A stretch of 62,238 nucleotides of DNA from Thermoplasmatales archaeon. GTDB taxonomy: Archaea > Thermoplasmatota > E2 > DHVEG-1. The notes under the pieces are model-generated. The model was not told the DNA's origin. It was given only the letters and a program-made list of their open reading frames with translations, and ran no database searches. The position numbers were made by a program, and so were the translations under genes. Below are positions 11,090-32,006 of the stretch, piece after piece (position 1 is the stretch's first letter; the number at the start of each line of letters is the position of its first letter). Where the stretch lies: assembly GCA_020341795.1 (NCBI GenBank), contig CP070836.1, positions 765,439 through 827,676 on the forward strand, in the 5' to 3' direction.

Positions 11090-14000
11090 TTATTTACCTA
11101 AGGCTTTAATCATTGATAATATCTGTCCATCTGTAAATCCAAGATGACTAATTGCACCGTTTAGACAGGCAGCAGAACATGAACCACATCCCTTACAGAG
11201 AGCCTCATTTACTTTTGCTACTAATACCCTATGGCCAAATCGATTGACTTCTTTAAGTTCAATGGCCTTATATGGACATGCATCTACACAGAAACCACAT
11301 CCGCGACATAATTCTTCATTTACATTTGCAACAGTTGCTTCGATTTCTAGTTGTTTTTTAGATAGAATGTCACATACTCTTGATGCAGCACCACTGGCTT
11401 GTGCAACAGTATCAGGTACATCCTTTGGACCCTGACAACAACCTGCTAAAAATATTCCATCTGTAAATGTATCAACTGGTCTAAGTTTTGGATGCGCTTC
11501 TAAGAAGAATCCATCTGCACTCTGATTTATATTTAAAATCCTAGCAAGAGCAATATTATCTTTTCGTGGGATAATACCAGTAGCTAAAACCACCAGGTCT
11601 GCTTTAGTATCAGGATGTCCCTTTGCTCTGACTATAACTTTCCCATTTTTCTTAGTAACCTTTATAGGATCATTTAGATCTCTACGTCGATAGGTGATTC
11701 CTTCACCTTGAACACGGTTGTAGAATTCTTCATATCCTTTTCCAAATGCACGCATATCAGTATAATAAATTGTTAGTTTTGAATTTGGAATTTTATCTCT
11801 GACCATGTGAGCCTGTTTTGCAGTATACATACAACAAACACGTGAACAATACTCATTGGTCTCTTTATCACGAGAACCTACACATTGAATGAATACAACA
11901 TTCTTTGGTTCCTTTCCATCTATTTGGATGTGCCCTTCTGTAGGTCCTGATGCTGAAACTAATCGTTCAAATTCAAGCCCTGAAATTACATTTTTATATT
12001 TGTTATATCCATATTCTGGTTTAGCTATTGGATCAAATAAATCAAAACCAGTTGCTACAACAATTGCACCAATATCTAGATTTACTATTTCCTCCTGAGC
12101 GTTATGGATAATTGCATCTGCTTCACAGGTTGTTTCACATTGTTTACAAATTGAACAAACATTACAACTCAAGCATCTTTGTGCTTCTTTAACTGCCATC
12201 TCCTCAGTTAATTCAAGCTCGACTTCCTTGAAGTTATGAATTCTATCTTTAACCGGGAGTTCAGGAAGCTTTACACGAGGTTTTTTCTCAAACTCACGTT
12301 CAGGTAAGGGTGCCACTATTGGTTCTTTTACGATTCGGCCTTTTTTCATGTCCTCACCTCGAAGATATCGATCAATTGATGTTGCAGCCTCATGGCCTTT
12401 TGCTATCGCGGTTATAACTAGACCAGGACCTTCAACTGCATCACCCGCCGCAAAAATACCAGGTACATTTGTTTCCTGTGTAATTCCATCGACTTGAAGT
12501 AATCCACCCTTAGTTACAAGAACACCATCACCAGCTTTTAACAATGTAAAATCAACTTCTTGCCCAATAGCAACAATAACTGAATCCGCCTCGATAATTG
12601 ACTCGGTTTCGGGGACTACCTGTGGATTAAAATTCCCATCTTTATCAAACACTGAACTGCAATTAATAGTTTCCAATCCAACAACCTTTCCTTCAACACC
12701 AAGGATTCTTTTTGGCATGAGACGAGGATGAATAACAACACCTTCTTCTTCAGCCTCTCGAATTTCATAATCAAAAGCTGGCATTTCTTCTCGAGACTCA
12801 ACACAGACAACATGAGTTTCTTTTGCACCAATTCGAACTGCTGAACGAGCAACATCAAATGCAACATTTCCTCCACCAATAACAACAACCTTTTTCCCCA
12901 GTTCTATCTTTTCGCCAACACTAAGTGCTCTTAAAAATGCAGTGAAGCCAAACACTCCTTTTAATTCAAGATGTTCTGTTGCAATTGGTATGACACCATT
13001 TTCTCGAAGTTCAATATTTACATGTGTTTCTGCAAGTGATGAAAGCATCGACATCTGACCAATTGCTGAGATTACGATATCTGCATCTAAGGTAAATGTC
13101 GATCCCAGGATAGGTACTGGTCGTCGTCTCCCAGTATCATCAGGTTCACCAAGTTTCATTCGTTGACATTCAATTCCAATAACCTTTCCCTTATCTCCTA
13201 ATATTTTCTTTGGAGCTGAAAGGTAATAAAATGAGATTCCTTCTTTTTCACAATCTTCTAATTCAGATTTCAATGCAGGAATTTCCGCCCTTGTTCTACG
13301 ATAAATAACAAATGCGGATTTTGCACCTAAACGGACAGCTGTTCGAACAGAATCAAGCGCAACATTTCCACCACCAATTACGGCAACAATTTTATCTTTG
13401 AAATCCAATTTTTTTCCGATACGTGTATCATGCAAAAATCCTGATGCATGAACAACACCTGTTAAATCTTCACCTTCGACACCTAAACGTTTACTTTTAT
13501 GTGTTCCTATCGCAATAAAAATTGCTTCATATCCGGCTTTTTTAAGATCCTTTAAGGTAAGATCAGGGCCAATTGGTGTATTTGTCCGGATTTCAACACC
13601 AGCTTGTTTAATTCGTTCTATATCATAATCAAGGATGTCCTCTGGTAACCGATACTTAGGCACACCAACACGTAACATACCACCAGATTTAGATAGTGCT
13701 TCGAATACCGTAGGTTTATATCCTTTCAAAGCAAGGTCATATGCAACAGTCAAACCTGCTGGACCAGCTCCCACGATAGCTACCTTTTTACCAGCCACAG
13801 GATTTATTTCTTCTTCTTCTTTCTCAGTGTCTTTTTCTTTTTTTGTCTCTTTCTTTTTTGTTTTATTACCGTGTTTCATCTCCCAATCTGATGCAAATCT
13901 TTTTAATGCTCTTACTGCAACTGCTTCATCGATATCCTTTCGATTGCAATTTTCCTCACAGACATGGGTACAAATCCGACCACATACACTTGGGAAGGGA

Positions 14001-14974
14001 TTGTTCTCACGAACTAAATCAATAGCCTCTTGAAATTTTCCTTCACGAATAAGAGCTACATATCCTTGAGCATTTACACCAGCAGGACATGCATTAACAC
14101 ATGGTGGAATACCAATCTTATCAATTGTATATTTCTGAGGCACCGCTTGTGGAAACGGAATATAAATTGCTTTTCTATCACCCTGACCCATATTAAACTC
14201 ATCTTCTAATATCACAGGGCATTCTTTAGTACATTCACCACAACCTGTACATTTATCCATGTCTATATATCTAGGTTTCTTACGAACTTGTACATTGAAA
14301 TTACCAACGTAACCTTCAATTCCCGCAACTTCTGAATACGTAAGTAGCTCAATATTAGGATGACGTGCAACATTAACCATCTTTGGTGTCAATATACATG
14401 CTGAACAGTCCATAGTTGGAAAAGTCTTATCTAGTTGTGCCATTCGCCCACCAATGCTAGGTGTTTTTTCTACAAGATATGTTTTAAATCCCATATCTCC
14501 GATGTCAAGTGCTGCTTGAATTCCAGCAATACCACCACCAATTACCATAGCAGTTGGTGTTACACCTACTTTCTTTTTCTCAAGAGGTGATGAAAGAGAA
14601 GTATTAAGAACAGCACTCTTAATTAAAGAAAATGCTTTTTTGGTTGCTTTTTCCCGATCTTTATGGACCCAAGAACATTGCTCTCTGATGTTAACCATTG
14701 TTAAAAAATATGGATTAACATCCATATCTTCAAGAACAGCTCGGAAAGTTGGTTCATGCATTCGGGGACTACAAGACGCTACAATGACACGGTCTAATTT
14801 CTTTTCTTTTATATCATTTTTAATTAGTTCTTGCCCAGGATCTGAACACATATACTTATAAAATCGGCTAACTGCTACGTTTGGTAATAATTTTGCTTGT
14901 TCTGCTATTTTTTCAACATCAACAGTTGCAGCTATGTTAACTCCACATTCACAAACATAAACTCCTATTTTCAT
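11090..14974 (-). CDS. hdrA: HdrA-type flavoprotein with an embedded GltD/NfnB-like NAD(P)H oxidoreductase module (1294 aa)
   Basis: HdrA N-terminal domain (YVCECG...ASCSPRMHEP...REQCSWVH), FAD motif VIGGGIAGIQAAL, and TFPTMDCSACIL. Residues about 287-932 (nt 12179-14116) are GltD-like: CVNACPAG...NPFPSVCGRICTHVCEENC, VGAGPAGL, and two GGGNVA(L/F)D Rossmann motifs. The HdrA core then resumes (VATGFDLFDP, FIQCVGSRD, YCSRVCCMY) and ends in C-terminal 2x[4Fe-4S] motifs. Confidence 0.85.
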   Translation of the reverse strand: MKIGVYVCECGVNIAATVDVEKIAEQAKLLPNVAVSRFYKYMCSDPGQELIKNDIKEKKLDRVIVASCSPRMHEPTFRAVLEDMDVNPYFLTMVNIREQCSWVHKDREKATKKAFSLIKSAVLNTSLSSPLEKKKVGVTPTAMVIGGGIAGIQAALDIGDMGFKTYLVEKTPSIGGRMAQLDKTFPTMDCSACILTPKMVNVARHPNIELLTYSEVAGIEGYVGNFNVQVRKKPRYIDMDKCTGCGECTKECPVILEDEFNMGQGDRKAIYIPFPQAVPQKYTIDKIGIPPCVNACPAGVNAQGYVALIREGKFQEAIDLVRENNPFPSVCGRICTHVCEENCNRKDIDEAVAVRALKRFASDWEMKHGNKTKKKETKKEKDTEKEEEEINPVAGKKVAIVGAGPAGLTVAYDLALKGYKPTVFEALSKSGGMLRVGVPKYRLPEDILDYDIERIKQAGVEIRTNTPIGPDLTLKDLKKAGYEAIFIAIGTHKSKRLGVEGEDLTGVVHASGFLHDTRIGKKLDFKDKIVAVIGGGNVALDSVRTAVRLGAKSAFVIYRRTRAEIPALKSELEDCEKEGISFYYLSAPKKILGDKGKVIGIECQRMKLGEPDDTGRRRPVPILGSTFTLDADIVISAIGQMSMLSSLAETHVNIELRENGVIPIATEHLELKGVFGFTAFLRALSVGEKIELGKKVVVIGGGNVAFDVARSAVRIGAKETHVVCVESREEMPAFDYEIREAEEEGVVIHPRLMPKRILGVEGKVVGLETINCSSVFDKDGNFNPQVVPETESIIEADSVIVAIGQEVDFTLLKAGDGVLVTKGGLLQVDGITQETNVPGIFAAGDAVEGPGLVITAIAKGHEAATSIDRYLRGEDMKKGRIVKEPIVAPLPEREFEKKPRVKLPELPVKDRIHNFKEVELELTEEMAVKEAQRCLSCNVCSICKQCETTCEADAIIHNAQEEIVNLDIGAIVVATGFDLFDPIAKPEYGYNKYKNVISGLEFERLVSASGPTEGHIQIDGKEPKNVVFIQCVGSRDKETNEYCSRVCCMYTAKQAHMVRDKIPNSKLTIYYTDMRAFGKGYEEFYNRVQGEGITYRRRDLNDPIKVTKKNGKVIVRAKGHPDTKADLVVLATGIIPRKDNIALARILNINQSADGFFLEAHPKLRPVDTFTDGIFLAGCCQGPKDVPDTVAQASGAASRVCDILSKKQLEIEATVANVNEELCRGCGFCVDACPYKAIELKEVNRFGHRVLVAKVNEALCKGCGSCSAACLNGAISHLGFTDGQILSMIKALGK

Positions 14975-14987
14975 AGCATCATTCCCC

Positions 14988-16934
14988 CTAGCCTACAAGT
15001 CCTCCTATTTGAGCAAGTAGTTGTTTCATATCAAAATGTTTCATTGAAATACAACCAGTTGGGCATGCTGATGCACATGAACCGCATCCTTTACATAGCA
15101 CATCATTTACCCGCATTATTTTATCTTTTTCATCAAACTCAAGAGCAGAATATGCACAGAGATCTTCACATATTCGGCATCCGCTACATAAATCTTCATC
15201 AATGTTTGCAGAAATTGCTTCTACCTCTACTTTACCTGCTGCAAGTGGCTCAGCTGCTCTAACCGCTGCACCACTAGCTTGTGCAACAGCATCAGGGATA
15301 TCCTTTGGACTTTGACAACAACCTGCTAAAAATATTCCATCTGTAAATGTATCAACTGGTCTAAGCTTTGGATGTGCCTCTAGGAAGAATCCATCTGCAC
15401 TCTGGTTGATATTTAAAATCCTAGATAACTCCTTTGAATCTTTTCTTGGTATTATACCCGTTGCAAGTACTACAAGGTCTGCTTCAATATCAGGATGCCC
15501 CTTGGCTTTTACAACGACTCTGTCACCTTGCTTGTTAACCTTTATAGGATCACCAAGATCTCTACGTCGATAGGTGATTCCTTCTCCTTGAACACGATTG
15601 TAGAATTCTTCAAAACCTTTACCGAAAGCTCGAACATCTGTAAAATAAATTATTAAATCTGCATCTGGAATTTTATCTTTTACCATATGAGCTTGTTTTG
15701 CAGTATACATACAACAAACACGGGAACAATACTCATTAGTCTCTTTATCACGAGAACCCACACATTGAATAAATACAACTTTTTTTGGTTTTTTACCATT
15801 AATTTCAACGTGCCCTTCTGTGGGTCCTGATGCTGAAACTAATCGTTCAAATTCAAGACCTGTAATAACATTATCATATTGACCATAACCATATTCTGCT
15901 TTTTTAGCAGGATCGAACAACTCGTAACCTGTAGCAACCACAATTGTCCCAACTTCAACTTCTACAATTTCTTCTTTCTGATCAAAATCTATTGCATTTC
16001 TATCATCACATGCTTCAATACATAAAGCATGGTCACCACATTTACCAGTTTTGAGAGTTATACAAGTTTCAGGATCGATGGTATATTTAAGTGGAACAGA
16101 TTGTGGAAATGGAACATAAATAGCACTACGTTTACTCATTTTCATGTCAAATTCATTTGGTATTCTATTGTGAAGCCTACAGGCTTCAGCACATGCTCCG
16201 CATCCAACACATTTCTCAATGTCAACATATCTAGGTTTCTTTTTAATTTTCACTTTGAAATTACCTATATATCCTTCAACATCTTGCACTTCTGAATAGG
16301 TAAAAAGTTCAATATTTGGATGACGTGCTACATCCACCATTTTAGGCGTAAGTATACATGCAGAACAGTCCATAGTGGGAAAAGTCTTATCAAGTTGAGC
16401 CATATGTCCACCGATACTTGGGTTTCGTTCTACAAGATACACCTTAAAACCTTTTTCTGCAATCTCAAGGGCTGCCTGAATTCCAGCGATACCCCCACCC
16501 ACAACAAGTGCTCGTGGAATTACACTTACTTCCTTTTTTTCAAGAGGTTCTAAAAAAGTTGCTCTTGCAACTGCTCCTTCAACTAAATGCTTAGCTTTTG
16601 CAGTTGCTCTGTCTTTGTCCTCATGAACCCATGAGCAATGTTCTCGTAGATTAACCATTTCAAAATAGTATGGATTCATACCCATATCCTCTAGAACAGC
16701 TCTGAAAGTAGGCTCGTGCATTCGTGGACTACACGATGCAACTACAACTCGATCTAATTTCATCTCTTTGATATCTTTTTTTATTAGCTCTTGTCCAGGA
16801 TCAGAACACATATATTTATAAAAACGAGCAACTTCTACACTAGGTAAGGTACTTGCGTATTTTACTACTTCTTCAACATCAACTGTTTGAGAAATATTGA
16901 TTCCACATTGACAGATATATACACCAATTTTCAT
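14988..16934 (-). CDS. hdrA: Heterodisulfide reductase subunit A (canonical length, 648 aa)
   Basis: All HdrA hallmarks are present: N-terminal Cys domain, VVGGGIAGIQAAL, TFPTMDCSACIL, inserted ferredoxin motifs, FIQCVGSRD, YCSRVCCMY and a C-terminal ferredoxin domain. Confidence 0.9.
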   Translation of the reverse strand: MKIGVYICQCGINISQTVDVEEVVKYASTLPSVEVARFYKYMCSDPGQELIKKDIKEMKLDRVVVASCSPRMHEPTFRAVLEDMGMNPYYFEMVNLREHCSWVHEDKDRATAKAKHLVEGAVARATFLEPLEKKEVSVIPRALVVGGGIAGIQAALEIAEKGFKVYLVERNPSIGGHMAQLDKTFPTMDCSACILTPKMVDVARHPNIELFTYSEVQDVEGYIGNFKVKIKKKPRYVDIEKCVGCGACAEACRLHNRIPNEFDMKMSKRSAIYVPFPQSVPLKYTIDPETCITLKTGKCGDHALCIEACDDRNAIDFDQKEEIVEVEVGTIVVATGYELFDPAKKAEYGYGQYDNVITGLEFERLVSASGPTEGHVEINGKKPKKVVFIQCVGSRDKETNEYCSRVCCMYTAKQAHMVKDKIPDADLIIYFTDVRAFGKGFEEFYNRVQGEGITYRRRDLGDPIKVNKQGDRVVVKAKGHPDIEADLVVLATGIIPRKDSKELSRILNINQSADGFFLEAHPKLRPVDTFTDGIFLAGCCQSPKDIPDAVAQASGAAVRAAEPLAAGKVEVEAISANIDEDLCSGCRICEDLCAYSALEFDEKDKIMRVNDVLCKGCGSCASACPTGCISMKHFDMKQLLAQIGGLVG

Positions 16935-16950
16935 ATCTTATCCCAAACCT

Positions 16951-17790
16951 CTATCTTTCACCTTGAAGTTTTTTTAACTCTCTATATGAAAACACAGGTC
17001 CATCTTTACACACATAAAGATTTCCAATATTACATCGGCCACATTTACCTATTCCACATTTCATTCTCATCTCAAGTGTGGTAAAGATTTGGTCATCGTT
17101 AAATCCAAGTTTTTCCAAGTTTTGAATTACAAATTTAATCATAATAGGTGGACCACAGGTTACTGCAATTGTGTTTTTAGGGGATGGTTTAACCTTTAGA
17201 AGGTTGTCAGGTACGAATCCTACAAACTTTTTCCAACCATCCTCTTTTACATCAATTGATAGATGAACACTCACATCTTTACGTTTCTCAAGCTCAGCAA
17301 ACTCATCTTTAAATGAAATATCCTCTGTGGTTCTTGCACCATAGATTACATCCAATTTCCCATAGTCTTTCTTGTTATCAAGTACATAGTCTATTAGACA
17401 TCTCAATGGTGCTTGTCCTATTCCACCGCCAATGAATACTATGTTTTTTCCTTTCCAACCTTTCATATCAAAATTATTGCCATATGGGCCCCGTACACCT
17501 ACAACATCACCTACTTCTGCTTCATGGAGTGCTTTTGTTACTTTTCCATGTCGCATTACACTTACTTCAATGTACCCTTTTTTAGTTGGTGAAGAAGAAA
17601 TAGCAAACATACATTCTCCTTTTCCAAGTAAGCTTACCATTGCACATTGACCAGGTTGAAACATAAAATTATTCTGCAAATTTTTATCCTGAAACTTCAG
17701 TCTAAAGGTTTTTATTGCTCTTTCGCCTCCAACTTCTTCTTTTATATTTTCTATAGTTGCGAGATTTGGTTGATATGGATTTTCGCTCAT
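16951..17790 (-). CDS. FAD/NAD(P)-binding [2Fe-2S] oxidoreductase subunit (FlxA / HydG / AsrB / PyrK-like)
   Basis: 279 aa; GGGIGQAPL NAD(P) motif and C-terminal CGIGKCGRC cluster motif. Confidence 0.75.
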   Translation of the reverse strand: MSENPYQPNLATIENIKEEVGGERAIKTFRLKFQDKNLQNNFMFQPGQCAMVSLLGKGECMFAISSSPTKKGYIEVSVMRHGKVTKALHEAEVGDVVGVRGPYGNNFDMKGWKGKNIVFIGGGIGQAPLRCLIDYVLDNKKDYGKLDVIYGARTTEDISFKDEFAELEKRKDVSVHLSIDVKEDGWKKFVGFVPDNLLKVKPSPKNTIAVTCGPPIMIKFVIQNLEKLGFNDDQIFTTLEMRMKCGIGKCGRCNIGNLYVCKDGPVFSYRELKKLQGER

Positions 17791-18806
17791 GGTTTCACCT
17801 CCCCTGCACGGGTTACTACATCAATTATATCAATATTTACTGGGCATCCTTCTATACATCTACCGCATCCTACACATGCTATTACATCCAGATTTTTCGG
17901 GTAATAATTATATTTATGATATACACGATTACGTACTCTATTAGCACGTGTTGGTCTTGGATTATAACCTGATGCTTGAAGTGTATACTCAGGAATCATA
18001 CATGTATCCCATATACGAACGCGTCCACCCTCTATCATCGTTGATTCATCCTGTATATCAAAACAATGACATGTTGGACAAAGATAAGTACAAGTACCGC
18101 ATCTTAAACATTTATCAGCAATTTCTTTCCAAAAATGATTTTCAAATATTTTATCCAGTTTTTCATCGATTTTATCAATCTTCTGAAAACGTGTTATTGA
18201 GTTAACTGCTTTCTTTTCGACTTCTTTTTTCTTTGTTTCATCTGCTTTTGTAGCAGGTTTAAAAAGGCTTGATTTAACAATCTTTTTACCTTTTTCACTG
18301 TTTACCTCTACAAAATATTTTTCTCCTATATCTGTTAGCAATATATCAACATGTTTTGAGGAAGCAGGACTGTCATTAAAAGAAGTACAAAAACAGTTTG
18401 GATAAGGATTTGTACAGCTTAGACCAACTAGTAACATGTTATCTCTCCTTGTTACATAAAAAGGATCTTCAAAATCTTCTTTGAAGACTGGATCAATGAT
18501 AAAAAAGCTTTTAGCATCACATGGTCTTATTCCAAAGATTGCTTTTTTACTGTTATTTATATCAGGTGGTTGGATTTTAACCTTGGTACCAGGTGTAAAT
18601 TTAAAAAGTGTTTCAGTCTGACAAAATAAAAGGCTCTTCGGTGGGAGTTTTGAGTTATCATATTTCATGTTTATATCTTTAGGATTTTTTATTTCTTTGA
18701 AGTACGTTTCATCATTAACCTCTACAGGTGCGAACACTTTATTTTTACCCATGATTTCTGTAATAAACTTAGGGAGGTTATCTTTAGATAAAATATATCC
18801 GCTCAT
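17787..18806 (-). CDS. Iron-sulfur subunit (FlxB / HydB / AsrA-like, 2x[4Fe-4S])
   Basis: CLRCGTCTYLCPTCHC and CVGCGRCIEGCP motifs. 4-nt overlap with the downstream FlxA-like gene. Confidence 0.7.
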   Translation of the reverse strand: MSGYILSKDNLPKFITEIMGKNKVFAPVEVNDETYFKEIKNPKDINMKYDNSKLPPKSLLFCQTETLFKFTPGTKVKIQPPDINNSKKAIFGIRPCDAKSFFIIDPVFKEDFEDPFYVTRRDNMLLVGLSCTNPYPNCFCTSFNDSPASSKHVDILLTDIGEKYFVEVNSEKGKKIVKSSLFKPATKADETKKKEVEKKAVNSITRFQKIDKIDEKLDKIFENHFWKEIADKCLRCGTCTYLCPTCHCFDIQDESTMIEGGRVRIWDTCMIPEYTLQASGYNPRPTRANRVRNRVYHKYNYYPKNLDVIACVGCGRCIEGCPVNIDIIDVVTRAGEVKP

Positions 18807-18817
18807 TACATATCACC

Positions 18818-19801
18818 TCACAATATAAACTCCTCGGGATCATCCGGTTTAAACATAGCAAGTAATGGTTTTGCCTCTGCATCAACTCCTGCTTTGTAAT
18901 CAAACATCTCATGTATATCCTTGGTAATTTTTTTATTTAGTTTCATAAGTGGAATATCCATTGGACATGAACGTTCACATTCTCCGCAGCTTATACAGCG
19001 ACCAGCTAGGTGGAAAGCGCGCAGTAGATTCCAAGCAGTGTTTTCAGATAAATTAACTGATCTGCGAACCCATTGAGGATCTAAAATTTCAACCATACAT
19101 TCTTTACAATAGCACATTGGACAAGCTTGCCGACATGCATAACATCTAATACATTTATCAAATTCTTTTTCCCAGTTTTTCCATTTATCATCAAGTGATT
19201 TTTTCTCAAAGCCTTCGATTTCTTTATAATCTGGTTTTTTTACTCCTTTGATTTCCTTACCTATCAGTATATCATGTATAATTGGAGTTGGATACTCACA
19301 TTCCTTACACTTTTCAGGCATTAGTTCATCTTTTGAAAACTTCTGTGTTTTTCCATCAACCGTAACTGCAAATTTATCGTTGTCATATTTTACCTCAACA
19401 CTTTTATGCTGTCCTGGAAACTTTACTTTTAGCTTCTTTGGGTCTATAACACCTGTACATGGAATACCTATGATTACTACGTCTTCTCTTTTCAAACCTT
19501 TTTCCTGAATAATCTGTACAATAGCTCTTGAATCACATCCCTTAAGTACGATTCCGATCTTTCTTGTATCTGGCTCTTCACCCTTGCGAAGTGGAGGCTT
19601 ATCTTCAAGCATAGGGTATACTGCCAAATTATTTACACAAGTTGGATTAAAAACAAATTTTTCAGCATCTTTTTCTTCATATGCAAACGTTGGTGCAGCC
19701 TGAAATCCAGTGGTACCTTTGTCATATCCAACTACATATTTTACATCCTTGCGTCCAACAGTTTTTTTTACTGCATCGCGAAGGGTTTTTTCATCTACCA
19801 T
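18818..19801 (-). CDS. Iron-sulfur subunit (FlxC-like, 2x[4Fe-4S])
   Basis: CIRCYACRQACPMCYC and CISCGECERSCP motifs. It sits between the MvhD-like and FlxB-like genes. Confidence 0.65.
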   Translation of the reverse strand: MVDEKTLRDAVKKTVGRKDVKYVVGYDKGTTGFQAAPTFAYEEKDAEKFVFNPTCVNNLAVYPMLEDKPPLRKGEEPDTRKIGIVLKGCDSRAIVQIIQEKGLKREDVVIIGIPCTGVIDPKKLKVKFPGQHKSVEVKYDNDKFAVTVDGKTQKFSKDELMPEKCKECEYPTPIIHDILIGKEIKGVKKPDYKEIEGFEKKSLDDKWKNWEKEFDKCIRCYACRQACPMCYCKECMVEILDPQWVRRSVNLSENTAWNLLRAFHLAGRCISCGECERSCPMDIPLMKLNKKITKDIHEMFDYKAGVDAEAKPLLAMFKPDDPEEFIL

Positions 19802-20223
19802 TTATTCTCCCTCCTGAAATGCTGCATTGGACCTAATTTTCGTATATCTTCTGTTACTTCTTTTACTACCTCTGCAAATTTGTGTCCTTCAGCTGCAGAT
19901 ACCCATGTCATCCTAACTCGATTAGAATCTATACCTGTGTATTCAAGTAGATTTTTTAAAACAGCCATTCTCCGTCTTGCAAGATAATTACCACGTTCAT
20001 AATGACAATCACCAGGGTGGCAACCACCAATTAGTACACCATCTGCACCTTGTTGTAACGCGTTTATAACAAATATTGGATTTACACGTCCTGAGCACAT
20101 AACCCGGATTACTTTTAGATTCGGTGGATATTGTATCCTACTAGTACCAGCCAAATCAGCTCCAGCATATGAACACCAATTACATAAAAATCCAATTATG
20201 TTTGGTTCAAATTTTTCCTTCAT
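19795..20223 (-). CDS. mvhD: MvhD/FlxD-type [2Fe-2S] adaptor protein
   Basis: FLCNWCSYAGADLAG, MCSGRV and GGCHPGDCHY motifs. Very similar to the ORF at 22660-23094. Confidence 0.85.
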   Translation of the reverse strand: MKEKFEPNIIGFLCNWCSYAGADLAGTSRIQYPPNLKVIRVMCSGRVNPIFVINALQQGADGVLIGGCHPGDCHYERGNYLARRRMAVLKNLLEYTGIDSNRVRMTWVSAAEGHKFAEVVKEVTEDIRKLGPMQHFRRENKW

Positions 20224-20225
20224 AC

Positions 20226-21239
20226 TTAGCCTCCAATTTTTCTTTTTTCAATTTTTTTTATCGGACCTATTTTATCCAATTCTTTAACATAATCATCAAT
20301 TGCCTTCGATAGTTTTGCTGATTCCCCTGTTGAAAACCATTCTAGTCTAATTCGTTTTGGATCTATACCTAATTCCTTTATGACGTTCTTAAGAAGTACA
20401 AGTCGTCTTCTCGTCTTATAGTTACCATCATGGTCACATTCCTCAGGGGGACATCCAGCGACCATAACACCCCATGCACCTTCTTCAATGGCATCTAAAA
20501 CAAGTTCTGGTGCAACTCGACCAGAGCACATACTAACAATTATTCCATAAGGTGTTTTAACCAAAGATGGTGATTCACTAAGTTGCATACCTGGAAAAAC
20601 TGACCAGTTACATGCAAAGACGATAAGCTTTTTTTTGTCTTCTTTGATTATTTCTTTAACTTTATTATGAAGTTCTGGCAGTGTTATTTCGCATCCTTCT
20701 TTTTGAGAAATGGCACCGGTTGGGCATGCTGCCATGCATAAACCACAGCCTCTGCATTCAATTTTATCAACGGTCATTTTTTCTTTTCCTTCTTTGTCTT
20801 TTTTCACTTCAAGGGCCTCATATTTACAAATAGATTCACAAATGTGACAAATTGAGCAGAGATCTTCATCAATTTTAGCAATTGTTCCTTCGACGTCGAA
20901 TCCTTGTTCTATTAAATCCGCTCTAGCATCTGTAAGAATATCTGTTATGGGTACTCCTGCTGAACAGTTATCACTGCAGTTTTTACAATAAAAACATTGG
21001 AATATCTTATCAACAATTTTCTGAGTGGGTTTTATTTCACCAGTAATCATTCCATAGATTAGAAGTAATTTCCCACGAGGTGTATCTGATTCCCAATAAA
21101 AGGATTTAAAAAGTGGACAAAGCTCATAACAGTAACCACATCGAATGCATTTGTTTAGTTCCTGTTCATATTTTCTTGATCTTTTGAAATCACCATTTCC
21201 TTTAAAATAAAATAATTTACCTAAAATTCCCATAATCAC
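20226..21239 (-). CDS. Fusion protein: GlcF/HdrC-like N-terminal FeS domain + 2x[4Fe-4S] ferredoxin + MvhD-like domain
   Basis: CIRCGYCYELCP...DTPRGK...CFYCKNCSDNC (GlcF-N-like), then CSICHICESIC and CRGCGLCMAACP (ferredoxin). Residues about 203-337 read FACNWS...MCSGRV...AGCPPEECDH (MvhD-like). No CCG motifs. Confidence 0.75.
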   Translation of the reverse strand: MIMGILGKLFYFKGNGDFKRSRKYEQELNKCIRCGYCYELCPLFKSFYWESDTPRGKLLLIYGMITGEIKPTQKIVDKIFQCFYCKNCSDNCSAGVPITDILTDARADLIEQGFDVEGTIAKIDEDLCSICHICESICKYEALEVKKDKEGKEKMTVDKIECRGCGLCMAACPTGAISQKEGCEITLPELHNKVKEIIKEDKKKLIVFACNWSVFPGMQLSESPSLVKTPYGIIVSMCSGRVAPELVLDAIEEGAWGVMVAGCPPEECDHDGNYKTRRRLVLLKNVIKELGIDPKRIRLEWFSTGESAKLSKAIDDYVKELDKIGPIKKIEKRKIGG

Positions 21240-22663
21240 CCCACCTTGTATCTAAGATTTGTAGCTTGAACCCAGTTATCTGGTGCATCCATAATCTTAT
21301 GAGGATTCAATATATTGTTTGGATCAAGTGCCCGTTTTACTTTTCTCATAACTGGTATTATATCACTACGTGCTTTTTTCCATGGTGGTGCTTTTGAAAG
21401 CCCTATTCCATGTTCTGCTGAAGTTACACCGCCAACAGAATGAATATAATCATATAATTCATCAATTACTTTCTCTGCATCCTCCCATTGACTCTTCTTT
21501 TTTGAATCAAGCATAATTTTTGTATGAATTACGCCAGAGCCACAATGACCATATACTGCCATTATTACATTGTTGCGTTCTGCTATCTCATGGATTTTCT
21601 CTGCAGCCTCTGCAATCTTTGAATTAGGAACACCCATATCATCTGCAAGATCGGTGCAAATAATTCCTTCCTTATAGCGTGATAGAGAAGCAAAAAGTTT
21701 TTTTCTTCCACTAAATAGTTTTGTTCTTTCTGCTAAATCATAGCTTTTCTTGATATCTTTACCATTGTATTTTTTACAGATTTTCTTCATTTTTTCAATT
21801 TCAAAATCGACTGCTTCTTTTACATTTCCATCAGCTTCAAATAAAATAATTGCTCCTACCTCTTTGAGTCCAAGATTCATTGCTTTGTTTACAGCAACAA
21901 TCCCAATTTTATCCATTAATTCTAACATTGAAGGTTCACAGCCACTTGAGATAATGTCTGAAATTGCATTACCAGCATCCTCAAGTTTATCAAAATTTGC
22001 CACAGCTAAGCATCTAAATTTGGGTATAGGTCTGATTCCCATAGTTGCTTCAACAACAATACCTAAAGTTCCTTCAGATCCAACGATTAATCTTTCAAGT
22101 TGATAGCCTGAGGAGTGAACACGTGTATTACTACCAAGGTTTACTAGATCACCATTTGCAAGTACGACTTTCATACCATATACATAATCTCGGGTAGCAC
22201 CATATTTAACTGATCTAACACCTGATGCATTAGCTGCAATTTCCCCGCCAATTGTAGCAATTCTACTTGATGCAGGAGCAGGTGGATAGAATAGACCCAT
22301 AGGTTTTAATGCGCGGTTAAGGTCATCATCAACAACACCAGGTTCAACCTTTACTAGCATATCTTCAGGTCGAATATCTAAAATACGATTCATTTTTTTC
22401 ATATCTAGAATAATTCCACCATCGATTGGAACGGTATGACCTGATGTTCCAGACCCTGCACCTCTAGCGATTATAGGAGTTTTACTGGAGTTTGCATATC
22501 TCATGATTTTTTGTACTTGTTCAATTGTTTGTGGTCGAACTATTGCTGTTGGCATTGCATGATGAACTGATGCATCTGATGCATATACATATAAATCAGC
22601 TATATCATCTGAAACATTTTCTTTTCCAACTATTTTTTTTAACTTTTCTATATCAATCTTCAT
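21236..22663 (-). CDS. glcD: FAD-linked oxidase (GlcD / D-lactate dehydrogenase family)
   Basis: 475 aa. ARGAGSGTSG FAD-binding (PCMH-type) motif and C-terminal SAEHGIG...LDPNNILNP motif typical of GlcD/Dld. Confidence 0.85.
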   Translation of the reverse strand: MKIDIEKLKKIVGKENVSDDIADLYVYASDASVHHAMPTAIVRPQTIEQVQKIMRYANSSKTPIIARGAGSGTSGHTVPIDGGIILDMKKMNRILDIRPEDMLVKVEPGVVDDDLNRALKPMGLFYPPAPASSRIATIGGEIAANASGVRSVKYGATRDYVYGMKVVLANGDLVNLGSNTRVHSSGYQLERLIVGSEGTLGIVVEATMGIRPIPKFRCLAVANFDKLEDAGNAISDIISSGCEPSMLELMDKIGIVAVNKAMNLGLKEVGAIILFEADGNVKEAVDFEIEKMKKICKKYNGKDIKKSYDLAERTKLFSGRKKLFASLSRYKEGIICTDLADDMGVPNSKIAEAAEKIHEIAERNNVIMAVYGHCGSGVIHTKIMLDSKKKSQWEDAEKVIDELYDYIHSVGGVTSAEHGIGLSKAPPWKKARSDIIPVMRKVKRALDPNNILNPHKIMDAPDNWVQATNLRYKVG

Positions 22664-23094
22664 TTTTTCACTTCTTTTAACGGGTTTGGACCGATTTTTT
22701 TAAGTTGATCAACAAACTCTGTAGCAACCGATGCAAATTTTGCTCCCTCAGAAGCAGAGATATACTCAAAACGTAGTCGTCCAGGATCAATAGCTAATTC
22801 TTCTAGGAGTTTTTTCAAAAGTTTCATTCTTCTATTAGCTTTATAATTTCCAGACTGGTAATGACAATCACCAGGGTGGCAACCACCAATTAGTACTCCA
22901 TCAGCACCTTTTCGTAAAGCCTCTAAAACAAATACAGGATCAACACGCCCTGAGCACATAACACGTATTGATTTTATATTTGGTGGATATTTCATCCTAC
23001 TGGTACCTGCCAAATCAGCTCCAGCATATGAACACCAATTACATAAAAACCCGATTATGTTTGGTTCAAATTCTTTTGCCATATCCTTTTTCAC
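22660..23094 (-). CDS. mvhD: Methyl-viologen-reducing hydrogenase delta subunit
   Basis: FLCNWCSYAGADLAG, MCSGRVDP and GGCHPGDCHY motifs. Located immediately downstream of mvhG-mvhA-protease. Confidence 0.85.
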   Translation of the reverse strand: MKKDMAKEFEPNIIGFLCNWCSYAGADLAGTSRMKYPPNIKSIRVMCSGRVDPVFVLEALRKGADGVLIGGCHPGDCHYQSGNYKANRRMKLLKKLLEELAIDPGRLRFEYISASEGAKFASVATEFVDQLKKIGPNPLKEVKK

Positions 23095-23095
23095 C

Positions 23096-23572
23096 TCAAC
23101 TCGAAATTTTTAAATTATTTTTTATTTCTTTAAGCGTCATTTTCACTGCTTTTGGTACTGCAGCAGCTATTTTAGGGCTTAGTTCCTCCCCAAAAATATA
23201 CGGAATTTTCCTTAGCACAATTCCAATTATTACAACCTCACGAGGGATTTTTTCTTCACCAAGACATTTTGCAAGTTTTATTGCTTCAACAAGTGAAACA
23301 TCATGCGGATTGTCAGAATGATAAGATGATAAATCAGAAAGAAGTAAGCGTTTTACTTCGCCATCTTTTGCCCCTCTAATATTTACTGCGTCGATTAATA
23401 TTGCTTTATCATAACCTACTATTAAATCTAGTAGATTCATACCACCTGTTTGGGCTTCATCTATGGTTATATCTGGATTTTTTACATATTGCTTTAATTG
23501 ATTTGCAACATGTATTCCTACTCCATCATCCTGTAGTATAGGATTTCCTATCCCGAGTACTATTGTTTTCAT
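23096..23572 (-). CDS. [NiFe] hydrogenase maturation endopeptidase
   Basis: MKTIVLGIGNPILQDDGVG N-terminus typical of HycI/HybD/FrhD-type proteases; 158 aa. Confidence 0.85.
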   Translation of the reverse strand: MKTIVLGIGNPILQDDGVGIHVANQLKQYVKNPDITIDEAQTGGMNLLDLIVGYDKAILIDAVNIRGAKDGEVKRLLLSDLSSYHSDNPHDVSLVEAIKLAKCLGEEKIPREVVIIGIVLRKIPYIFGEELSPKIAAAVPKAVKMTLKEIKNNLKISS

Positions 23573-23583
23573 TTTTTTTCCTT

Positions 23584-25044
23584 TTACATATTTTGTCTTA
23601 GTGTTTTGTATAATTTTTTATTATAATCATATATTTTTACTTCCATAGGCATTTGACCTGGAAGTGTATGTGTTGCACATCCGAAACATGGATCATATGC
23701 TCGAAATGCCATCTCAACCATGTTTAGGAGTCCATCGTTGACTTTTCCACCTTTGATAAGTCCTTTTGCAGCGTTTCTAATTGACATGTTTATTGCCCCT
23801 GCATTGTTAACAGTTGCAACGATAAGGTTTGCTTTGTCGATTAATCCTTTTTTATCAAGTTTATAATGATGAATAAGTGTTCCACGACAGGCTTCAACAA
23901 CTCCATATCCTTCTCCTGGTTCACCAACAGGATTTTTTATTTTATCTGATGTTATTTCAGGGTCTTTAATTAGTTCAAGTGTTCTCTCTGTTGCATATAA
24001 AAGTTCAACTAGTCGAGCCCAATGAAATGCTAGTGTACTATTTACAGGTCTTCCACCTAGTGTTTCATATAACCTTTTGTATTCTTTATCAGCAAGTGGT
24101 GTTGCCATTCCATCTGCAGCATTTAGTCTTCCAAGTGGTCCTACACGATAAAGTCCACTATCCTTTCCATCGACATAACCCTTCCATCCTATTTTTTTAA
24201 GAAATGGAAATTTTATATAGCTCCATTCTTCAACGTGTTCACCAATGTTTTTGTAATAATCTTTCACATCGAATTTAGTAAATTCTTTTCCTTTTTGATC
24301 TGTAACTCGTATTTTTCCATCATAAAAGTTTACCTTGTTGTTTTTATCAACTAGTCCCATGTTGTAGGTTGCAAGTTGATAAGGATCGCTTAATATTACG
24401 TCAACATAGTCTTTGTTTTTTAGAACTATGTCATCAAACAGTTTTAGTGTAAATTGTGCAAAATCCCTGCAGGATTTAGCCATTGTTTCAATATCTTTTA
24501 CCTCATCTTTATTAAGACCTTTTGAAACACCACCTGGTAGTCCACATACTGGATGTGTTGCTTTTCCTCCAAGTATTGCTGTAATTTTTTGACCATATGC
24601 TCGGTGTTTTATGACTTCTTTACCAATTTCTACTCCTGCTTTTTCTATTACCCCTAGAACATTTCTTTTTGCAGCAGGTGCATCAGGACCTACTACAAAG
24701 TCTGGCCCACCAAGGTAATAAAAATGAAGTGTGTGATCATAGATGTAATAACCTACATACATTAACTCTCGAAGTTTCTTTGCAGATGATGGTGGATCAA
24801 CGTTAAATGCATCATCAAGAGCTTTTGTAGCTGCAAAGTGATGTGCTACTGGGCAAACCCCACAAATACGAGATGTAATTTGCGGCATATCTTCAGCACG
24901 TCTGCCTTGCGAAAATCTCTCAAAACCTCTAAGTTCAGGTATCTGCATATATGCATTTGCTACATCGCCTTTTCCATCAAGGAAAATAGCTATTTTTCCG
25001 TGACCTTCGAGTCTAGTTATTGGGTCTATTAAAATTTGTTTCAT
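23584..25044 (-). CDS. mvhA: [NiFe] hydrogenase large subunit, F420-non-reducing (group 3c, MvhA-like)
   Basis: N-terminal RLEGHG and RICGVCPVAHH motifs. C-terminal DPCFGCATH Ni-binding/cleavage motif with a 27-aa tail. Confidence 0.9.
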   Translation of the reverse strand: MKQILIDPITRLEGHGKIAIFLDGKGDVANAYMQIPELRGFERFSQGRRAEDMPQITSRICGVCPVAHHFAATKALDDAFNVDPPSSAKKLRELMYVGYYIYDHTLHFYYLGGPDFVVGPDAPAAKRNVLGVIEKAGVEIGKEVIKHRAYGQKITAILGGKATHPVCGLPGGVSKGLNKDEVKDIETMAKSCRDFAQFTLKLFDDIVLKNKDYVDVILSDPYQLATYNMGLVDKNNKVNFYDGKIRVTDQKGKEFTKFDVKDYYKNIGEHVEEWSYIKFPFLKKIGWKGYVDGKDSGLYRVGPLGRLNAADGMATPLADKEYKRLYETLGGRPVNSTLAFHWARLVELLYATERTLELIKDPEITSDKIKNPVGEPGEGYGVVEACRGTLIHHYKLDKKGLIDKANLIVATVNNAGAINMSIRNAAKGLIKGGKVNDGLLNMVEMAFRAYDPCFGCATHTLPGQMPMEVKIYDYNKKLYKTLRQNM

Positions 25045-26042
25045 TTATCTAACCTCCTATTTATTAAAGCAGCTGGTAAACCATATTTGTAAAAGGTACC
25101 AACTGGGTCGACTATTTGATCGATTAATTTTTCAACTTCTGCATCACTCATATTTTCTTCTCCATCAATTCCAATTACTGATGCAAGTGCAGAAATCATT
25201 TTAGCTCCTTGATCTAGTGCATTTGGTGTTGGACCACCGCATCCTGTACATGGCATATTTGCATCAAGACATCTTGCCTCACAGCTTCCACGGGTAGCAG
25301 GGCCCATACAGATAATTCCTTGTTCAAGAAGACATTTATCTTCTATCTTGTCGACCTCATAGATTCGTTTTATTTCTTTGATTCTTTTTTCTGATTTTTC
25401 AAATCTGCATTCATCACATACTGATTTCAAAGGACCAATCACACTGCCTTTTGGCGGTAGTTTTCCTTCAACAATTGCACCAACAGCGGTCATAATAAGA
25501 TCAGGAGTTGGCGGACAACCTGGTAAGTAATAATCGACATCTATTACCTGGTCAAGCTTACTAACTGATTCATAAAACTCAGGAAGAGTAAGGGTACCTT
25601 CTTTAACTTTAACATTTGTTTTTGGAACAACTTTCTTTGGATTATCAATCGAAGGATTGTTCTTATAAACAACGTCAAAGATTTCCTCCTTATTTGTAAC
25701 ATTTGCAAGTCCAGGTATTCCACCAAGGACTGCACATGCTCCAAATGCTACCATTACCTTTGATTTCTTTCGAAGTAGTTTTGCAATATGTTCCTGTTCG
25801 GAATTACGAATACCACCATTGAAGAAACATACATCAATTTGGTTATCCTTCATCGCTTCAACGTCTTTGTATTTAAAATCCATCGCAACTGGCCAAAATA
25901 ATATATCAGCTACAGCTACAACATCTAGAACTTTTTCATCAATGTCTAGAACAGCTATTTCACATCCACCACAACTTGCCGCCCAGTAAAATGCAAGTTG
26001 TAGTTTTTTCTTATCTTTTTTCTCTTTTTTCTCCTTACTCAT
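25041..26042 (-). CDS. mvhG: [NiFe] hydrogenase small subunit (MvhG-like)
   Basis: WAASCGGCEIA proximal cluster motif and further Cys clusters (CDEC, CMGPATRGSC, CTGCGGP). 4-nt overlap with mvhA. Confidence 0.85.
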   Translation of the reverse strand: MSKEKKEKKDKKKLQLAFYWAASCGGCEIAVLDIDEKVLDVVAVADILFWPVAMDFKYKDVEAMKDNQIDVCFFNGGIRNSEQEHIAKLLRKKSKVMVAFGACAVLGGIPGLANVTNKEEIFDVVYKNNPSIDNPKKVVPKTNVKVKEGTLTLPEFYESVSKLDQVIDVDYYLPGCPPTPDLIMTAVGAIVEGKLPPKGSVIGPLKSVCDECRFEKSEKRIKEIKRIYEVDKIEDKCLLEQGIICMGPATRGSCEARCLDANMPCTGCGGPTPNALDQGAKMISALASVIGIDGEENMSDAEVEKLIDQIVDPVGTFYKYGLPAALINRRLDK

Positions 26043-26076
26043 ATAATCACCAATTTCTATTCGATTTTAATCTATT

Positions 26077-26958: not shown

Positions 26959-26963
26959 AATAT

Positions 26964-27389
26964 TTAACCTACATTTTTCCTAAATAGGCTTACAAATGCC
27001 ATTTGAGGAATTGTTTCTTTTTCATCTTTTGTTATATTCTTTATATTTGTTCTATCAATTTTTTTCCTAAGAATTATCTGCCTAAGAGCCTCCATAATTT
27101 TAGTAATGTTAATATCACGTGGGCATCGCTCAGCACATGTAAAACATGAAGAGCATAACCATATTGTTTTTGAGTTTAGCACTTCTTTTCTATCAAGTAT
27201 TATATATCTTATTACTTCATCAGGTGAAAGATCCATCTCATCAACAAAGGGACAACCAGCTGAACATGTACCACACTGGTAACAGCCAAAAAGGTTTTCT
27301 CCACAGAGCTCCTCTACCTCCGTGAGTAGCTCGCCTTTTTTAAGCTGAATAGTGTTTAAATTTAAATTTCCTTGTAGTTTCTTACTCAT
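26964..27389 (-). CDS. hdrC: Heterodisulfide reductase subunit C
   Basis: CYQCGTCSAGCP and CSSCFTCAERCP motifs; 141 aa. 4-nt overlap with the upstream tandem hdrA. Confidence 0.85.
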   Translation of the reverse strand: MSKKLQGNLNLNTIQLKKGELLTEVEELCGENLFGCYQCGTCSAGCPFVDEMDLSPDEVIRYIILDRKEVLNSKTIWLCSSCFTCAERCPRDINITKIMEALRQIILRKKIDRTNIKNITKDEKETIPQMAFVSLFRKNVG

Positions 27390-32005: not shown

Positions 32006-32006
32006 T

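Follow-up and report, generated by a model that had tools for sequence, protein, structure and literature searches.

The 62,238-nucleotide stretch of DNA analysed here (in its whole length the window; positions 765,439 to 827,676 of contig CP070836.1, assembly GCA_020341795.1, from a Thermoplasmatales archaeon) contains an open reading frame (ORF) of 1294 amino acids (aa) at 11090–14974 on the minus strand, as taken from the ORF list and its translation. This gene encodes an HdrL or type III HdrA protein, i.e. a complete HdrA with its inserted ferredoxin domain opened for a permuted GltD/NfnL-type module. HdrA is the bifurcating subunit in complexes of the heterodisulfide-reductase type, and contains FAD and six clusters. 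Immediately upstream is a gene for a canonical 648-aa HdrA (14988–16934, minus strand), which was used for comparison. BLASTP aligned aa 1–285 of the 1294-aa protein with residues 1–287 of its neighbour (68% identity), and aa 953–1292 with residues 313–646 (69% identity), and the approximately 645 residues left over, which are GltD/NfnB-like, separate the two cluster motifs of the inserted ferredoxin domain. An earlier sequence-only reading of the window by a model had given this ORF without its strand, had described an end-to-end match with HdrA apart from about 645 extra residues, and had placed these at 12179–14116, which is aa 287–932 on the minus strand; all of this was confirmed, and every motif it quoted was found in the translation where it had been placed. 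In the HdrA part and across its border with the insert these are CTGCGECTKECP (aa 242–253), YTID (282–285), CLSCNVCSICKQCETTC (934–950) and VATGFDLFDP (973–982), in the Fe-S/FAD part of the insert CVNACPAG (292–299), NPFPSVCGRICTHVCEENC (325–343), VGAGPAGL (401–408) and GIFAAGD (839–845), and in the two Rossmann units AVIGGGNVALD (531–541) with YRR (558–560), and VVIGGGNVAFD (697–707) with EEMPA (729–733). The gene and its HdrA parts are as follows (FAD, flavin adenine dinucleotide):

11090..14974, minus strand: whole gene, HdrA with GltD/NfnL-like insert (HdrL / type III HdrA), from translation, Pfam, NCBIfam and PDB matches.
14585..14974, minus strand: HdrA N-terminal domain, aa 1–130, with Cys 8, 10, 43, 68 and 100 matching the neighbouring HdrA (BLASTP, Cys alignment).
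14270..14584, minus strand: HdrA thioredoxin-reductase-like FAD domain, first part, aa 131–235, with GGGIAG at 146–151 and C190/C193 (Pfam, BLASTP, motifs).
14117..14269, minus strand: inserted ferredoxin domain, first half, aa 236–286, with C242-x2-C245-x2-C248-x3-C252-P up to YTID (BLASTP, motifs; the four Cys present in 59/59 relatives).
12119..12157, minus strand: inserted ferredoxin domain, second half, aa 940–952, with C940-x2-C943-x2-C946-x3-C950 (aligns with 8rvv_A and 5odc_A; Cys invariant).
11360..12118, minus strand: HdrA FAD domain, second part, aa 953–1205, with conserved Cys 1031, 1043, 1047, 1048, 1179 and 1180 (BLASTP, 69%).
11093..11359, minus strand: HdrA C-terminal 2x[4Fe-4S] ferredoxin domain, aa 1206–1294, with motifs at 1223 and 1260 (Pfam Fer4_7/Fer4).

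In a Cys-by-Cys alignment all cysteines of the neighbouring HdrA were matched in the 1294-aa protein, with the exception of the last one (C628), which is replaced by Ala, and the HdrA cysteines at the positions checked were invariant in the alignment of 59 HdrL relatives from which the figures out of 59 given here are derived. A PDB sequence search with the 1294-aa protein returned both HdrA (5odc_A, E-value 2e-224) and NfnB/GltD-type chains (1e-119 to 1e-63). In NCBIfam the protein scored 835 bits for HdrA2 (cut-off 1100) and 615 bits for HdrA (cut-off 1400), below both, and the neighbouring plain HdrA was likewise under the HdrA and HdrA2 equivalog cut-offs, which means that neither protein is an equivalog of methanogen HdrA.

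The sequence-only reading had also raised the doubt that the ORF is a chimeric assembly of separate hdrA and gltD genes. Nothing positive speaks for such an artefact or for a mis-join, although the orthologue is called as two ORFs (908 and 409 aa) in some assemblies. However, the same gene was found in the same operon on independent contigs: a 1294-aa member of a 90%-identity cluster (representative P0001, 92% identical to the window protein) has this operon on two independent JGI contigs (L001, 198 kb, and L002, 15 kb), and a 79%-identical orthologue with the same operon and neighbours is present in an NCBI metagenome-assembled genome (MAG). The guanine plus cytosine content of the insert is 39% against 36% in the flanks, and at least 120 full-length homologues with the same junctions were listed. 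In addition, one genome per species was scanned for alignments spanning the N-terminal junction, and 80 loci were listed of 498 confirmed relatives, a number which carries no coverage information. These 80 loci, which do not comprise the closest relatives of the window gene, lie in genomes that stand for one species each and are spread over many phyla (Chloroflexota, Desulfobacterota, Bacillota, Actinomycetota, Armatimonadota, Gemmatimonadota, Thermotogae, WOR-3, Hadarchaeota, Bathyarchaeia and others), with Desulfotruncus arcticus as a cultured carrier, and cover the junction end to end in 80/80 cases; the database search for the same domain order, as proposed in the sequence-only reading, hence found it in at least 80 species genomes. 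The independent contigs and the homologues with both junctions rule out a chimeric ORF, an explanation to which we assign next to no probability. The split orthologues themselves (approximately 908 plus 409–419 aa) are P0125 and P0129 on a 143.5-kb JGI contig, and UCF13866.1 on a 2.3-Mb Thermoplasmatales MAG contig, and could be due to a frameshift or a sequencing error, unless the gene is truly split in certain strains.

With regard to the insert itself, Pfam matches were obtained for Fer4_20 (aa 290–369, matching from profile position 30) and Pyr_redox_2/3, and NCBIfam placed it in the glutamate-synthase-small-subunit group, with 660.1 bits for PRK12771.1 ('NAD(P)-binding protein', cut-off 516) over aa 287–666, and 464.3 bits for TIGR01316, slightly short of the cut-off of 471.75. 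The motifs of NfnB-type proteins for FAD (GxGxxG) and for nicotinamide adenine dinucleotide phosphate (NADPH; GGGNxAxD and YRR) are present, and the module is predicted to carry two [4Fe-4S] clusters, one FAD and two tandem dinucleotide-binding domains. Apart from the latter domains it consists of the following parts:

13859..14116, minus strand: module Fe-S domain, aa 287–372, starting from PPC292xxxC296P (Fer4_20 position 30, NfnL ~50), with C331/C335/C339/C343, and K358 at the non-Cys ligand position (Pfam; alignment to 9bov_A, 8oh5_C and 5jca_L; conservation).
13799..13858, minus strand: Lys/Glu-rich low-complexity linker, aa 373–392, not found in solved relatives, with a predicted local distance difference test (pLDDT) score below 50 (alignment gap, model).
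13469..13798, minus strand: module FAD domain, N-terminal part, aa 393–502, with VGAGPAGL, and R442 in YRLP (Pfam, alignments, conservation).
12335..12559, minus strand: module FAD domain, C-terminal part, aa 806–880, with a beta-hairpin, GIFAAGD and a helix ending in RYLRG (second aligned stretch to 9bov_A, 9n5u_A and 5jca_L).
12158..12334, minus strand: permuted segment equivalent to the NfnL/GltD N-terminus, aa 881–939, the putative source of the two missing distal-cluster Cys (alignment; C934 and C937 invariant).

In the alignment the insert starts, with PPC292-x3-C296-P, at the equivalent of residue ~50 of Pyrococcus furiosus NfnL, and it ends with KPRVKLPELPVKDRIHNFKEVELELTEEMAVKEAQRC934LSC937, directly before the C940-x2-C943-x2-C946-x3-C950 motif of HdrA. 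This last segment (aa ~896–938) aligns with residues 6–48 of NfnL (5jca_L, 5vj7_A) and 8–56 of Thermotoga maritima NfnB (4ylf_B). As the insert thus begins at NfnL ~50 and finishes with the equivalent of NfnL 6–48, the module is circularly permuted relative to NfnB, with the break placed inside the first Cys motif of the GltD Fe-S domain, which brings both module ends side by side in a cluster-binding loop. The N-terminal GltD/NfnB Fe-S signature that had been reported from the sequence is therefore only in part where it was expected: its second part is present at the insert start, whereas the first part (helices and CxxC) is located at the C-terminal end of the insert (aa ~896–937).

The solved relatives nearest to the insert are Bfu-type NfnA (9bov_A, E-value 1e-109; 9n5u_A, 3e-107) and StnC (8oh5_C, 2e-91), with NfnL at approximately 1e-82. 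Both StnC and Bfu-type NfnA have the same order of a GltD body followed by the N-terminal helix and RCxxC, the link region aligning with residues 517–570 of 9bov_A, 550–602 of 9n5u_A and 523–573 of 8oh5_C, and the module body with residues 102–437. We expanded this comparison to the 150 best representative proteins from a library of 1.8 billion proteins, and found the permuted order in 49/49 of those where the terminal segment was detectable, and the canonical order in none; this permuted set takes in free-standing proteins of ~500 aa as well as other Fe-S hosts. The insert is thus one of a clade of plug-in modules for NAD(P)H that share the permuted order.

Each of the 16 cysteines in the motifs of the inserted ferredoxin domain and of the module Fe-S domain is retained by 58–59 of the 59 relatives. 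By homology with dihydropyrimidine dehydrogenase, NfnB and StnC, we take the ligands of the distal cluster to be C292, C343, C934 and C937, and those of the proximal cluster presumably are C296, C335 and C339, with the fourth at position 358. Part of the cluster-ligand assignments comes from PMC11829005. An extra cysteine, C331 (window 13982–13984, minus strand), stands four residues before the first Cys of CxxxCxxxC and is found in 58/59 HdrL relatives; many of the free-standing permuted modules have it as well, StnC, Bfu-type NfnA and NfnL lack it, and it may change the ligation of the flavin-proximal cluster.

The two consecutive NAD(P)-type Rossmann units recognised in the sequence-only reading represent a tandem duplication of ~165 residues within the insert, as a local self-alignment matched residues ~496–640 (LGVEGEDLTGVVHASGFLHD...KIVAVIGGGNVALD...AIGQ) with ~663–805 (IATEHLELKGVFGFTAFLRA...KVVVIGGGNVAFD...AIGQ):

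12971..13468, minus strand: duplication unit 1, aa 503–668, consisting of the lead-in GVVHASGF and domain D1 of the 'YRR' type, with GGGNVA, Y558-R559-R560, the LGEPDDTGRRRP loop and AIGQ (self-alignment, domain typing, alignment to the NADPH domains of NfnL/StnC).
12560..12970, minus strand: duplication unit 2, aa 669–805, consisting of the lead-in GVFGFTAF and domain D2 of the 'CxE' type, with GGGNVA, C724-V725-E726, EEMPA and AIGQ (self-alignment, domain typing).

The first unit had been thought to have GVFGFTAF (aa 673–680) in place of GIFAAGD, but a decayed GD motif is ruled out, as GVFGFTAF aligns with the GVVHASGF (aa ~507–514) leading into the first unit, and thus marks the start of the second copy. 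The double-domain form is a minority, present in one of the 80 genome loci listed, and is predominant among the nearest relatives of the window protein, where it comes in two classes of ~1290 and ~1650 aa, the latter being an N-terminally truncated HdrA with the module, fused to a second HdrA without the inserted ferredoxin domain. Seven non-HdrA representatives with apparent tandem domains were rejected, as these have a single domain split by a short insertion, and within the data examined true tandem domains were confined to HdrA hosts.

In 70 double-domain proteins, D1 has YRR[S/T/G] after beta-2 in 67, and D2 has C[L/V]E in 70/70. The 51 relatives with a single domain are of either type (YRR in 43, CxE in eight), and are nearer to the like type in the double-domain proteins (52% identity for YRR, 49% for CxE) than to the other type (38–41%). 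GGGNVAxD, E(I/M)PA and AIGQ are retained in D1 as well as in D2, conservation is equal in the two domains (mean identity 0.65 for D1 and 0.62 for D2), and both are confidently folded in the AlphaFold2 model described below. Basic residues (Arg/Arg) after beta-2 favour the 2'-phosphate of NADP, while an acidic residue there favours NAD, and NADPH- and NADH-dependent glutamate synthases differ likewise. Because of this difference between basic and acidic residues, D1 looks NADPH-specific and D2 NADH-specific, and the two may form a dual-nucleotide port, in which both reach the single module FAD, e.g. by alternate docking, which would let the HdrA complex take electrons from both pyridine-nucleotide pools or give electrons to them, or link the two pools as Nfn does; this would be compatible with a bifurcating as well as a non-bifurcating module flavin. 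While the fixed order, the two types of single domain and the equal conservation all speak for such a port, the specificities come from one motif, one nicotinamide at a time can stack on a flavin, the fold comparison with NfnL fits either D1 or D2 in the canonical position over FAD, and one of the domains may be purely structural or regulatory; we therefore regard the dual port as possible but doubtful. It is improbable, in our opinion, that a dual NADPH/NADH port acts together with ferredoxin, H2 or thiol/disulfide in an Nfn-like transhydrogenation, by a route unlike that of NfnAB and StnABC.

An AlphaFold2 model of aa 131–1294, built on the 59-sequence alignment, had a mean pLDDT of 80.3 and a predicted template modelling (TM) score of 0.68, with low confidence for the Lys/Glu-rich linker (aa 376–390) and the segments after each AIGQ. 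Foldseek searches against the PDB gave target-normalised TM scores of 0.86–0.87 to HdrA core chains (8rwn_A, 8rvu_a), 0.77 to NfnL (5jca_L) and NfnB (4ylf_B), and 0.78 to GltD (6s6s_E), the score to NfnL being compatible with either D1 or D2 in the canonical position over FAD. In this model both folds are kept (TM 0.86 for HdrA and 0.77 for NfnL) and the HdrA flavin domain is left intact by the insert, which is the structure-prediction check that the sequence-only reading had suggested.

The HdrL gene closes a tightly packed minus-strand string with the order 1081-aa tandem HdrA, HdrC, HdrB, MvhG, MvhA, maturation protease, MvhD, GlcD-like FAD oxidase, HdrC-like/ferredoxin/MvhD fusion, MvhD, 327-aa FrhB-C-like protein, HydB/AsrA-like, HydG/AsrB-like, HdrA and HdrL, and is followed by a gene for a small FeMo-cofactor-binding-domain protein. 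The string includes three MvhD domains, HdrB (CCG) and HdrC:

14988..16934, minus strand: canonical 648-aa HdrA, 13 bp upstream, proposed heterodimer partner (Pfam, BLASTP, NCBIfam).
16951..18806, minus strand: HydG/AsrB-like protein (FAD, NAD(P), [2Fe-2S]; 279 aa) and HydB/AsrA-like protein (Fer4_22; 339 aa) (Pfam, NCBIfam).
18818..20223, minus strand: 327-aa FrhB/FdhB-C-like Fe-S protein and MvhD (142 aa) (Pfam).
20226..27389, minus strand: HdrC-like/2x[4Fe-4S]/MvhD fusion, GlcD-like FAD oxidase, MvhD, hydrogenase protease, MvhA, MvhG, HdrB and HdrC (Pfam, NCBIfam).

The HdrA and HdrL gene pair recurs in L001, L002 and two further loci (L005 and L006), and the adjacent proteins probably form a heterodimer, which is supported by the ~1650-aa fusion of two HdrA units. 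Similarly, the sub-cassette MvhG-MvhA-MvhD-327aa-HydB-like-HydG-like-(HdrA)-HdrL is seen again in GCA_030603365.1 and a MAG of the Promethearchaeota, and the HydG-like and HydB-like genes are found beside the HdrL gene in the window, L001, L005, L006 and an Asgard locus (L007). Neighbours were also counted in 41 large loci from many phyla, with MvhD scored within 10 kb: MvhD was present in 39, HdrC in 31, HdrB in 24, HydBG-like proteins in 10 and Mvh hydrogenase in four. A tally of additional HdrA genes among these neighbours was set aside as unreliable, since its query may also match HdrL. The HydG/AsrB-like protein, a homologue of NfnS, is always accompanied by a HydB-like protein, and matched the sulfhydrogenase gamma/AsrB-type family of NCBIfam with 263 bits, against 89 bits for the NfnS-type family PRK06222. 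At the other extreme, a tandem HdrL of the Planctomycetota is near-solitary, its sole neighbour being a small HdrC-like protein.

Additional features were observed around these genes. The 1081-aa HdrA-like protein (27386–30631, minus strand) has two FAD/thioredoxin-reductase-like regions (tandem 'type II' HdrA) and is followed by HdrC (26964–27389), HdrB (26077–26958), MvhG (25041–26042) and MvhA (23584–25044); there are thus three HdrA-type genes within 20 kb, or four HdrA-like FAD units if the tandem protein is counted twice. The gene directly downstream of HdrL (10692–11057, minus strand) encodes a small protein with a dinitrogenase FeMo-cofactor-binding (NifX/NifB-C-like) domain, and is also located downstream in close relatives (L001 13918–14283, L002 7248–7613, L005 13895–14242; 115–121 aa in all), but around the 80 more distant loci listed no such gene was detected. 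A 1649-aa tandem relative on a Logan contig (SRR25293831; L004, 4497–20736) lies beside genes for HdrD-like, lipoate-protein ligase, several DsrE-family, TusA and GcvH-like proteins, and for a fused HydB-HydG protein with a group-3-like [NiFe] hydrogenase, a context resembling the sulfur-oxidising sHdr-LbpA systems. Within the window, the GlcD-like FAD-linked 2-hydroxyacid dehydrogenase (21236–22663, minus strand) adjoins the HdrC-like/2x[4Fe-4S]/MvhD fusion (20226–21239, minus strand), and together with LarA lactate racemase (7892–9139, plus strand) and subunits of pyruvate:ferredoxin oxidoreductase (30582–33191, minus strand) this hints at lactate oxidation as one electron source for the Hdr machinery. 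Two C25 (gingipain-type) and one C10 (streptopain-type) cysteine peptidase genes are located close together at 724–2370, 2430–3839 and 6184–7725 (all minus strand), and suggest a protein-degrading lifestyle of the archaeon.

The function of the module can be approached from its closest solved relatives. In canonical HdrA, the low-potential electron leaves the bifurcating FAD via the inserted ferredoxin domain (PMC13518236). The FAD in the modules of StnC and Bfu-type NfnA is at the end of an electron chain and has been demonstrated, or else argued, not to bifurcate (PMC10482914, PMC11829005); it feeds electrons from NADPH via an Fe-S chain toward a bifurcating flavin elsewhere. Like these, the window protein has its module in permuted order and inserted into an Fe-S host protein, with Lys at the position of the proximal-cluster ligand, where a contrast between Glu in NfnB and Lys has been described (PMC10482914): the counterpart of K358 is K170 in StnC and NfnA and Glu in NfnL, and this residue is Lys in 41, His in 17 and Arg in one of the 59 relatives, and Glu in none. 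The kinship of the module FAD with the non-bifurcating FAD of StnC and Bfu-type NfnA, the replacement by Lys/His of the Glu that tunes the NfnB proximal cluster, and the frequent absence of an NfnS-type partner (a HydG/NfnS-like protein is found in 10/41 large loci) are the reasons why we consider, with moderate confidence, that the module is a port for NAD(P)(H) which does not itself bifurcate and is connected to the bifurcating FAD of HdrA. Of the two functions envisaged in the sequence-only reading, a link between the low-potential Fe-S arm of HdrA and NAD(P) fits the evidence, whereas the non-bifurcating relatives, the permuted connectivity with Lys rather than Glu, and NfnA/NfnS-like partners in only 10/41 loci disfavour the coupling of two bifurcation-competent flavins.

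In such a port, NAD(P)H would give a hydride to the module FAD, or NAD(P)+ would take one from it, with this FAD acting as an ordinary two-electron/one-electron converter and not as a second bifurcation site. Single electrons would pass from this FAD through the proximal cluster, the distal cluster and the two inserted-ferredoxin clusters to the HdrA FAD, i.e. over four [4Fe-4S] clusters, and the HdrA FAD would remain the sole bifurcating or confurcating centre. The insert would replace or occlude the docking site for free ferredoxin, and the pyridine-nucleotide pool would become a direct substrate of the MvhD/HdrBC-associated HdrA complex. HdrL would probably pair with the adjacent plain HdrA, and probably work with the Mvh-type [NiFe] hydrogenase, the HydBG-like NAD(P)H module, the GlcD-like dehydrogenase and HdrBC. 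The architecture, the conserved cofactor ligands, the permuted connectivity, the kinship with StnC and Bfu-type NfnA and the gene context are shown by the present data, while the non-bifurcating flavin, the nucleotide specificities and any direction of electron flow are inferred. Two reactions are candidates: NAD(P)H may serve as mid-potential donor for the reduction of a disulfide and a low-potential acceptor (as proposed in PMC12054007 and PMC2702500), or the reverse confurcation may yield NAD(P)H or H2.

Several points count against a non-bifurcating port. No HdrL-family member has been purified, and the flavin chemistry of the module is read from its sequence. R442, conserved in 59/59 relatives, corresponds to the Arg hydrogen-bonding N5 of the bifurcating FAD in NfnB, although an Arg of this type is also conserved in StnC and hence does not discriminate, while C331 (58/59) could replace Lys358 as cluster ligand, making the Lys argument indirect. 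The HydG/AsrB-like FAD/[2Fe-2S] homologue of NfnS is co-located in the window and in two other lineages, and could supply the high-potential branch needed by an Nfn-like bifurcating flavin. Finally, a plain NAD(P)+ sink on the low-potential arm would waste energy, and mid-potential entry at the module requires another low-potential exit. The alternative is two bifurcating flavins in series, as proposed by Chadwick et al. for ANME-1 (PMC9012536), with the module FAD acting like the L-FAD of NfnSL, the low-potential branches joined, and the HydG/AsrB-like protein in the role of NfnS. The NfnL fold and the FAD and NADPH motifs are indeed conserved, as is R442, and the HydG-like and HydB-like pair stands beside the gene in the five loci named above. 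However, position 358 has Lys or His (and one Arg) and never Glu, the modules most closely related to it, those of StnC and NfnA, are non-bifurcating, the HydG-like protein is absent from 31/41 large loci and from the near-solitary Planctomycetota gene, and its score is that of an AsrB-type rather than an NfnS-type protein. C331, the conserved N5 Arg and the local HydG-like protein are why we retain two flavins in series as an unlikely alternative to the preferred reading of a non-bifurcating port.

The architecture itself has already been published and is widespread, and the window gene is a further member. An HdrL was described in 2009 as 'heterodisulfide reductase/glutamate synthase fusion' in Desulfobacterium autotrophicum HRM2 (PMC2702500), that of Syntrophobacter fumaroxidans is Sfum_0824 (PMC5947623), and HdrL of sulfate reducers is abundant as protein under sulfidogenic conditions (PMC2702500, PMC5947623). 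For HdrA9-11 of ANME-1, Chadwick et al. (2022) reported a 500-aa NfnB-like insertion in the ferredoxin domain and proposed two bifurcation sites (PMC9012536), and for type III HdrA (classes A9/A10), which corresponds to HdrA9-11, structure predictions with the module at the ferredoxin site, and NADH as mid-potential substrate, were presented in Microbiol Spectr in 2025 (PMC12054007). Both the idea of two bifurcation sites and that of an NAD(P) link have thus been published before (PMC9012536, PMC12054007), and the reading preferred here has precedents for type III HdrA (PMC12054007) and for HdrL (PMC2702500, PMC5947623). The circular permutation shared with StnC and NfnA was not found in the published descriptions of HdrL, HdrA9-11 and type III HdrA, and neither were the Lys/His ligand position, the tandem of YRR and then CxE types, or the partner frequencies; a bioRxiv survey of HdrA evolution (10.1101/2024.09.26.615249) does not cover the insertion.

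Compared with these proteins, the window gene is like type III HdrA and ANME-1 HdrA9-11 in having the inserted ferredoxin domain interrupted by a GltD/NfnB-like domain, and like the Bathyarchaeota version of type III HdrA it clusters with mvhADG. It differs in the size of the insert (~645 aa with tandem YRR and CxE domains, against ~500 aa with one nucleotide domain), and in its host, a non-methane-metabolising archaeon. The HdrL of sulfate reducers, compared here by description, belongs to bacteria, frequently has selenocysteine and is a proposed reductase of DsrC, and the Desulfobacterota loci retrieved all had a single nucleotide domain, unlike the window gene. StnC (8oh5) and Bfu-type NfnA (9bov, 9n5u) have a NuoG/Fdh-like host with HydBC-like StnAB/NfnBC partners, whereas the host in the window is HdrA; NuoF/HydB-like matches were found in 0/39 Pfam-scanned ORFs of the window, which has 67 ORFs of at least 100 aa in all. 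They also have a single NADPH domain and no equivalent of Cys331, and Cys114 of StnC is absent from the window protein. NfnB/NfnL (4ylf, 5jca) share with the module the fold, two [4Fe-4S] clusters, the FAD and an NADPH domain (~45% identity), but are free-standing and linear in order, have Glu as a ligand of the proximal cluster, depend on an NfnA/NfnS partner and bifurcate at their FAD. Canonical HdrA of the MvhADG-HdrABC complex (5odc, 8rvv, 7bkb) has the same four HdrA domains and cluster cysteines, with MvhD, HdrB, HdrC and Mvh hydrogenase encoded nearby in the window, whereas the inserted ferredoxin domain of the window protein is split by 645 residues, and its second motif reads CxxCxxCxxxC in place of the canonical Cx7Cx5Cx3C.

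Among the enzymes that bifurcate electrons by means of a flavin, the HdrA-type complexes form a major class, and their coupling to NAD(P)H outside the methanogens is unsettled. That HdrL has the same permuted plug-in as StnC and Bfu-type NfnA suggests that its module probably is a non-bifurcating NAD(P)H port; the subclass represented in the window combines two types of nucleotide domain, and in most genomes HdrL travels with MvhD and HdrBC. As this design is common across bacterial and archaeal phyla, with at least 80 species genomes, its physiological role matters for anaerobic energy metabolism in general.

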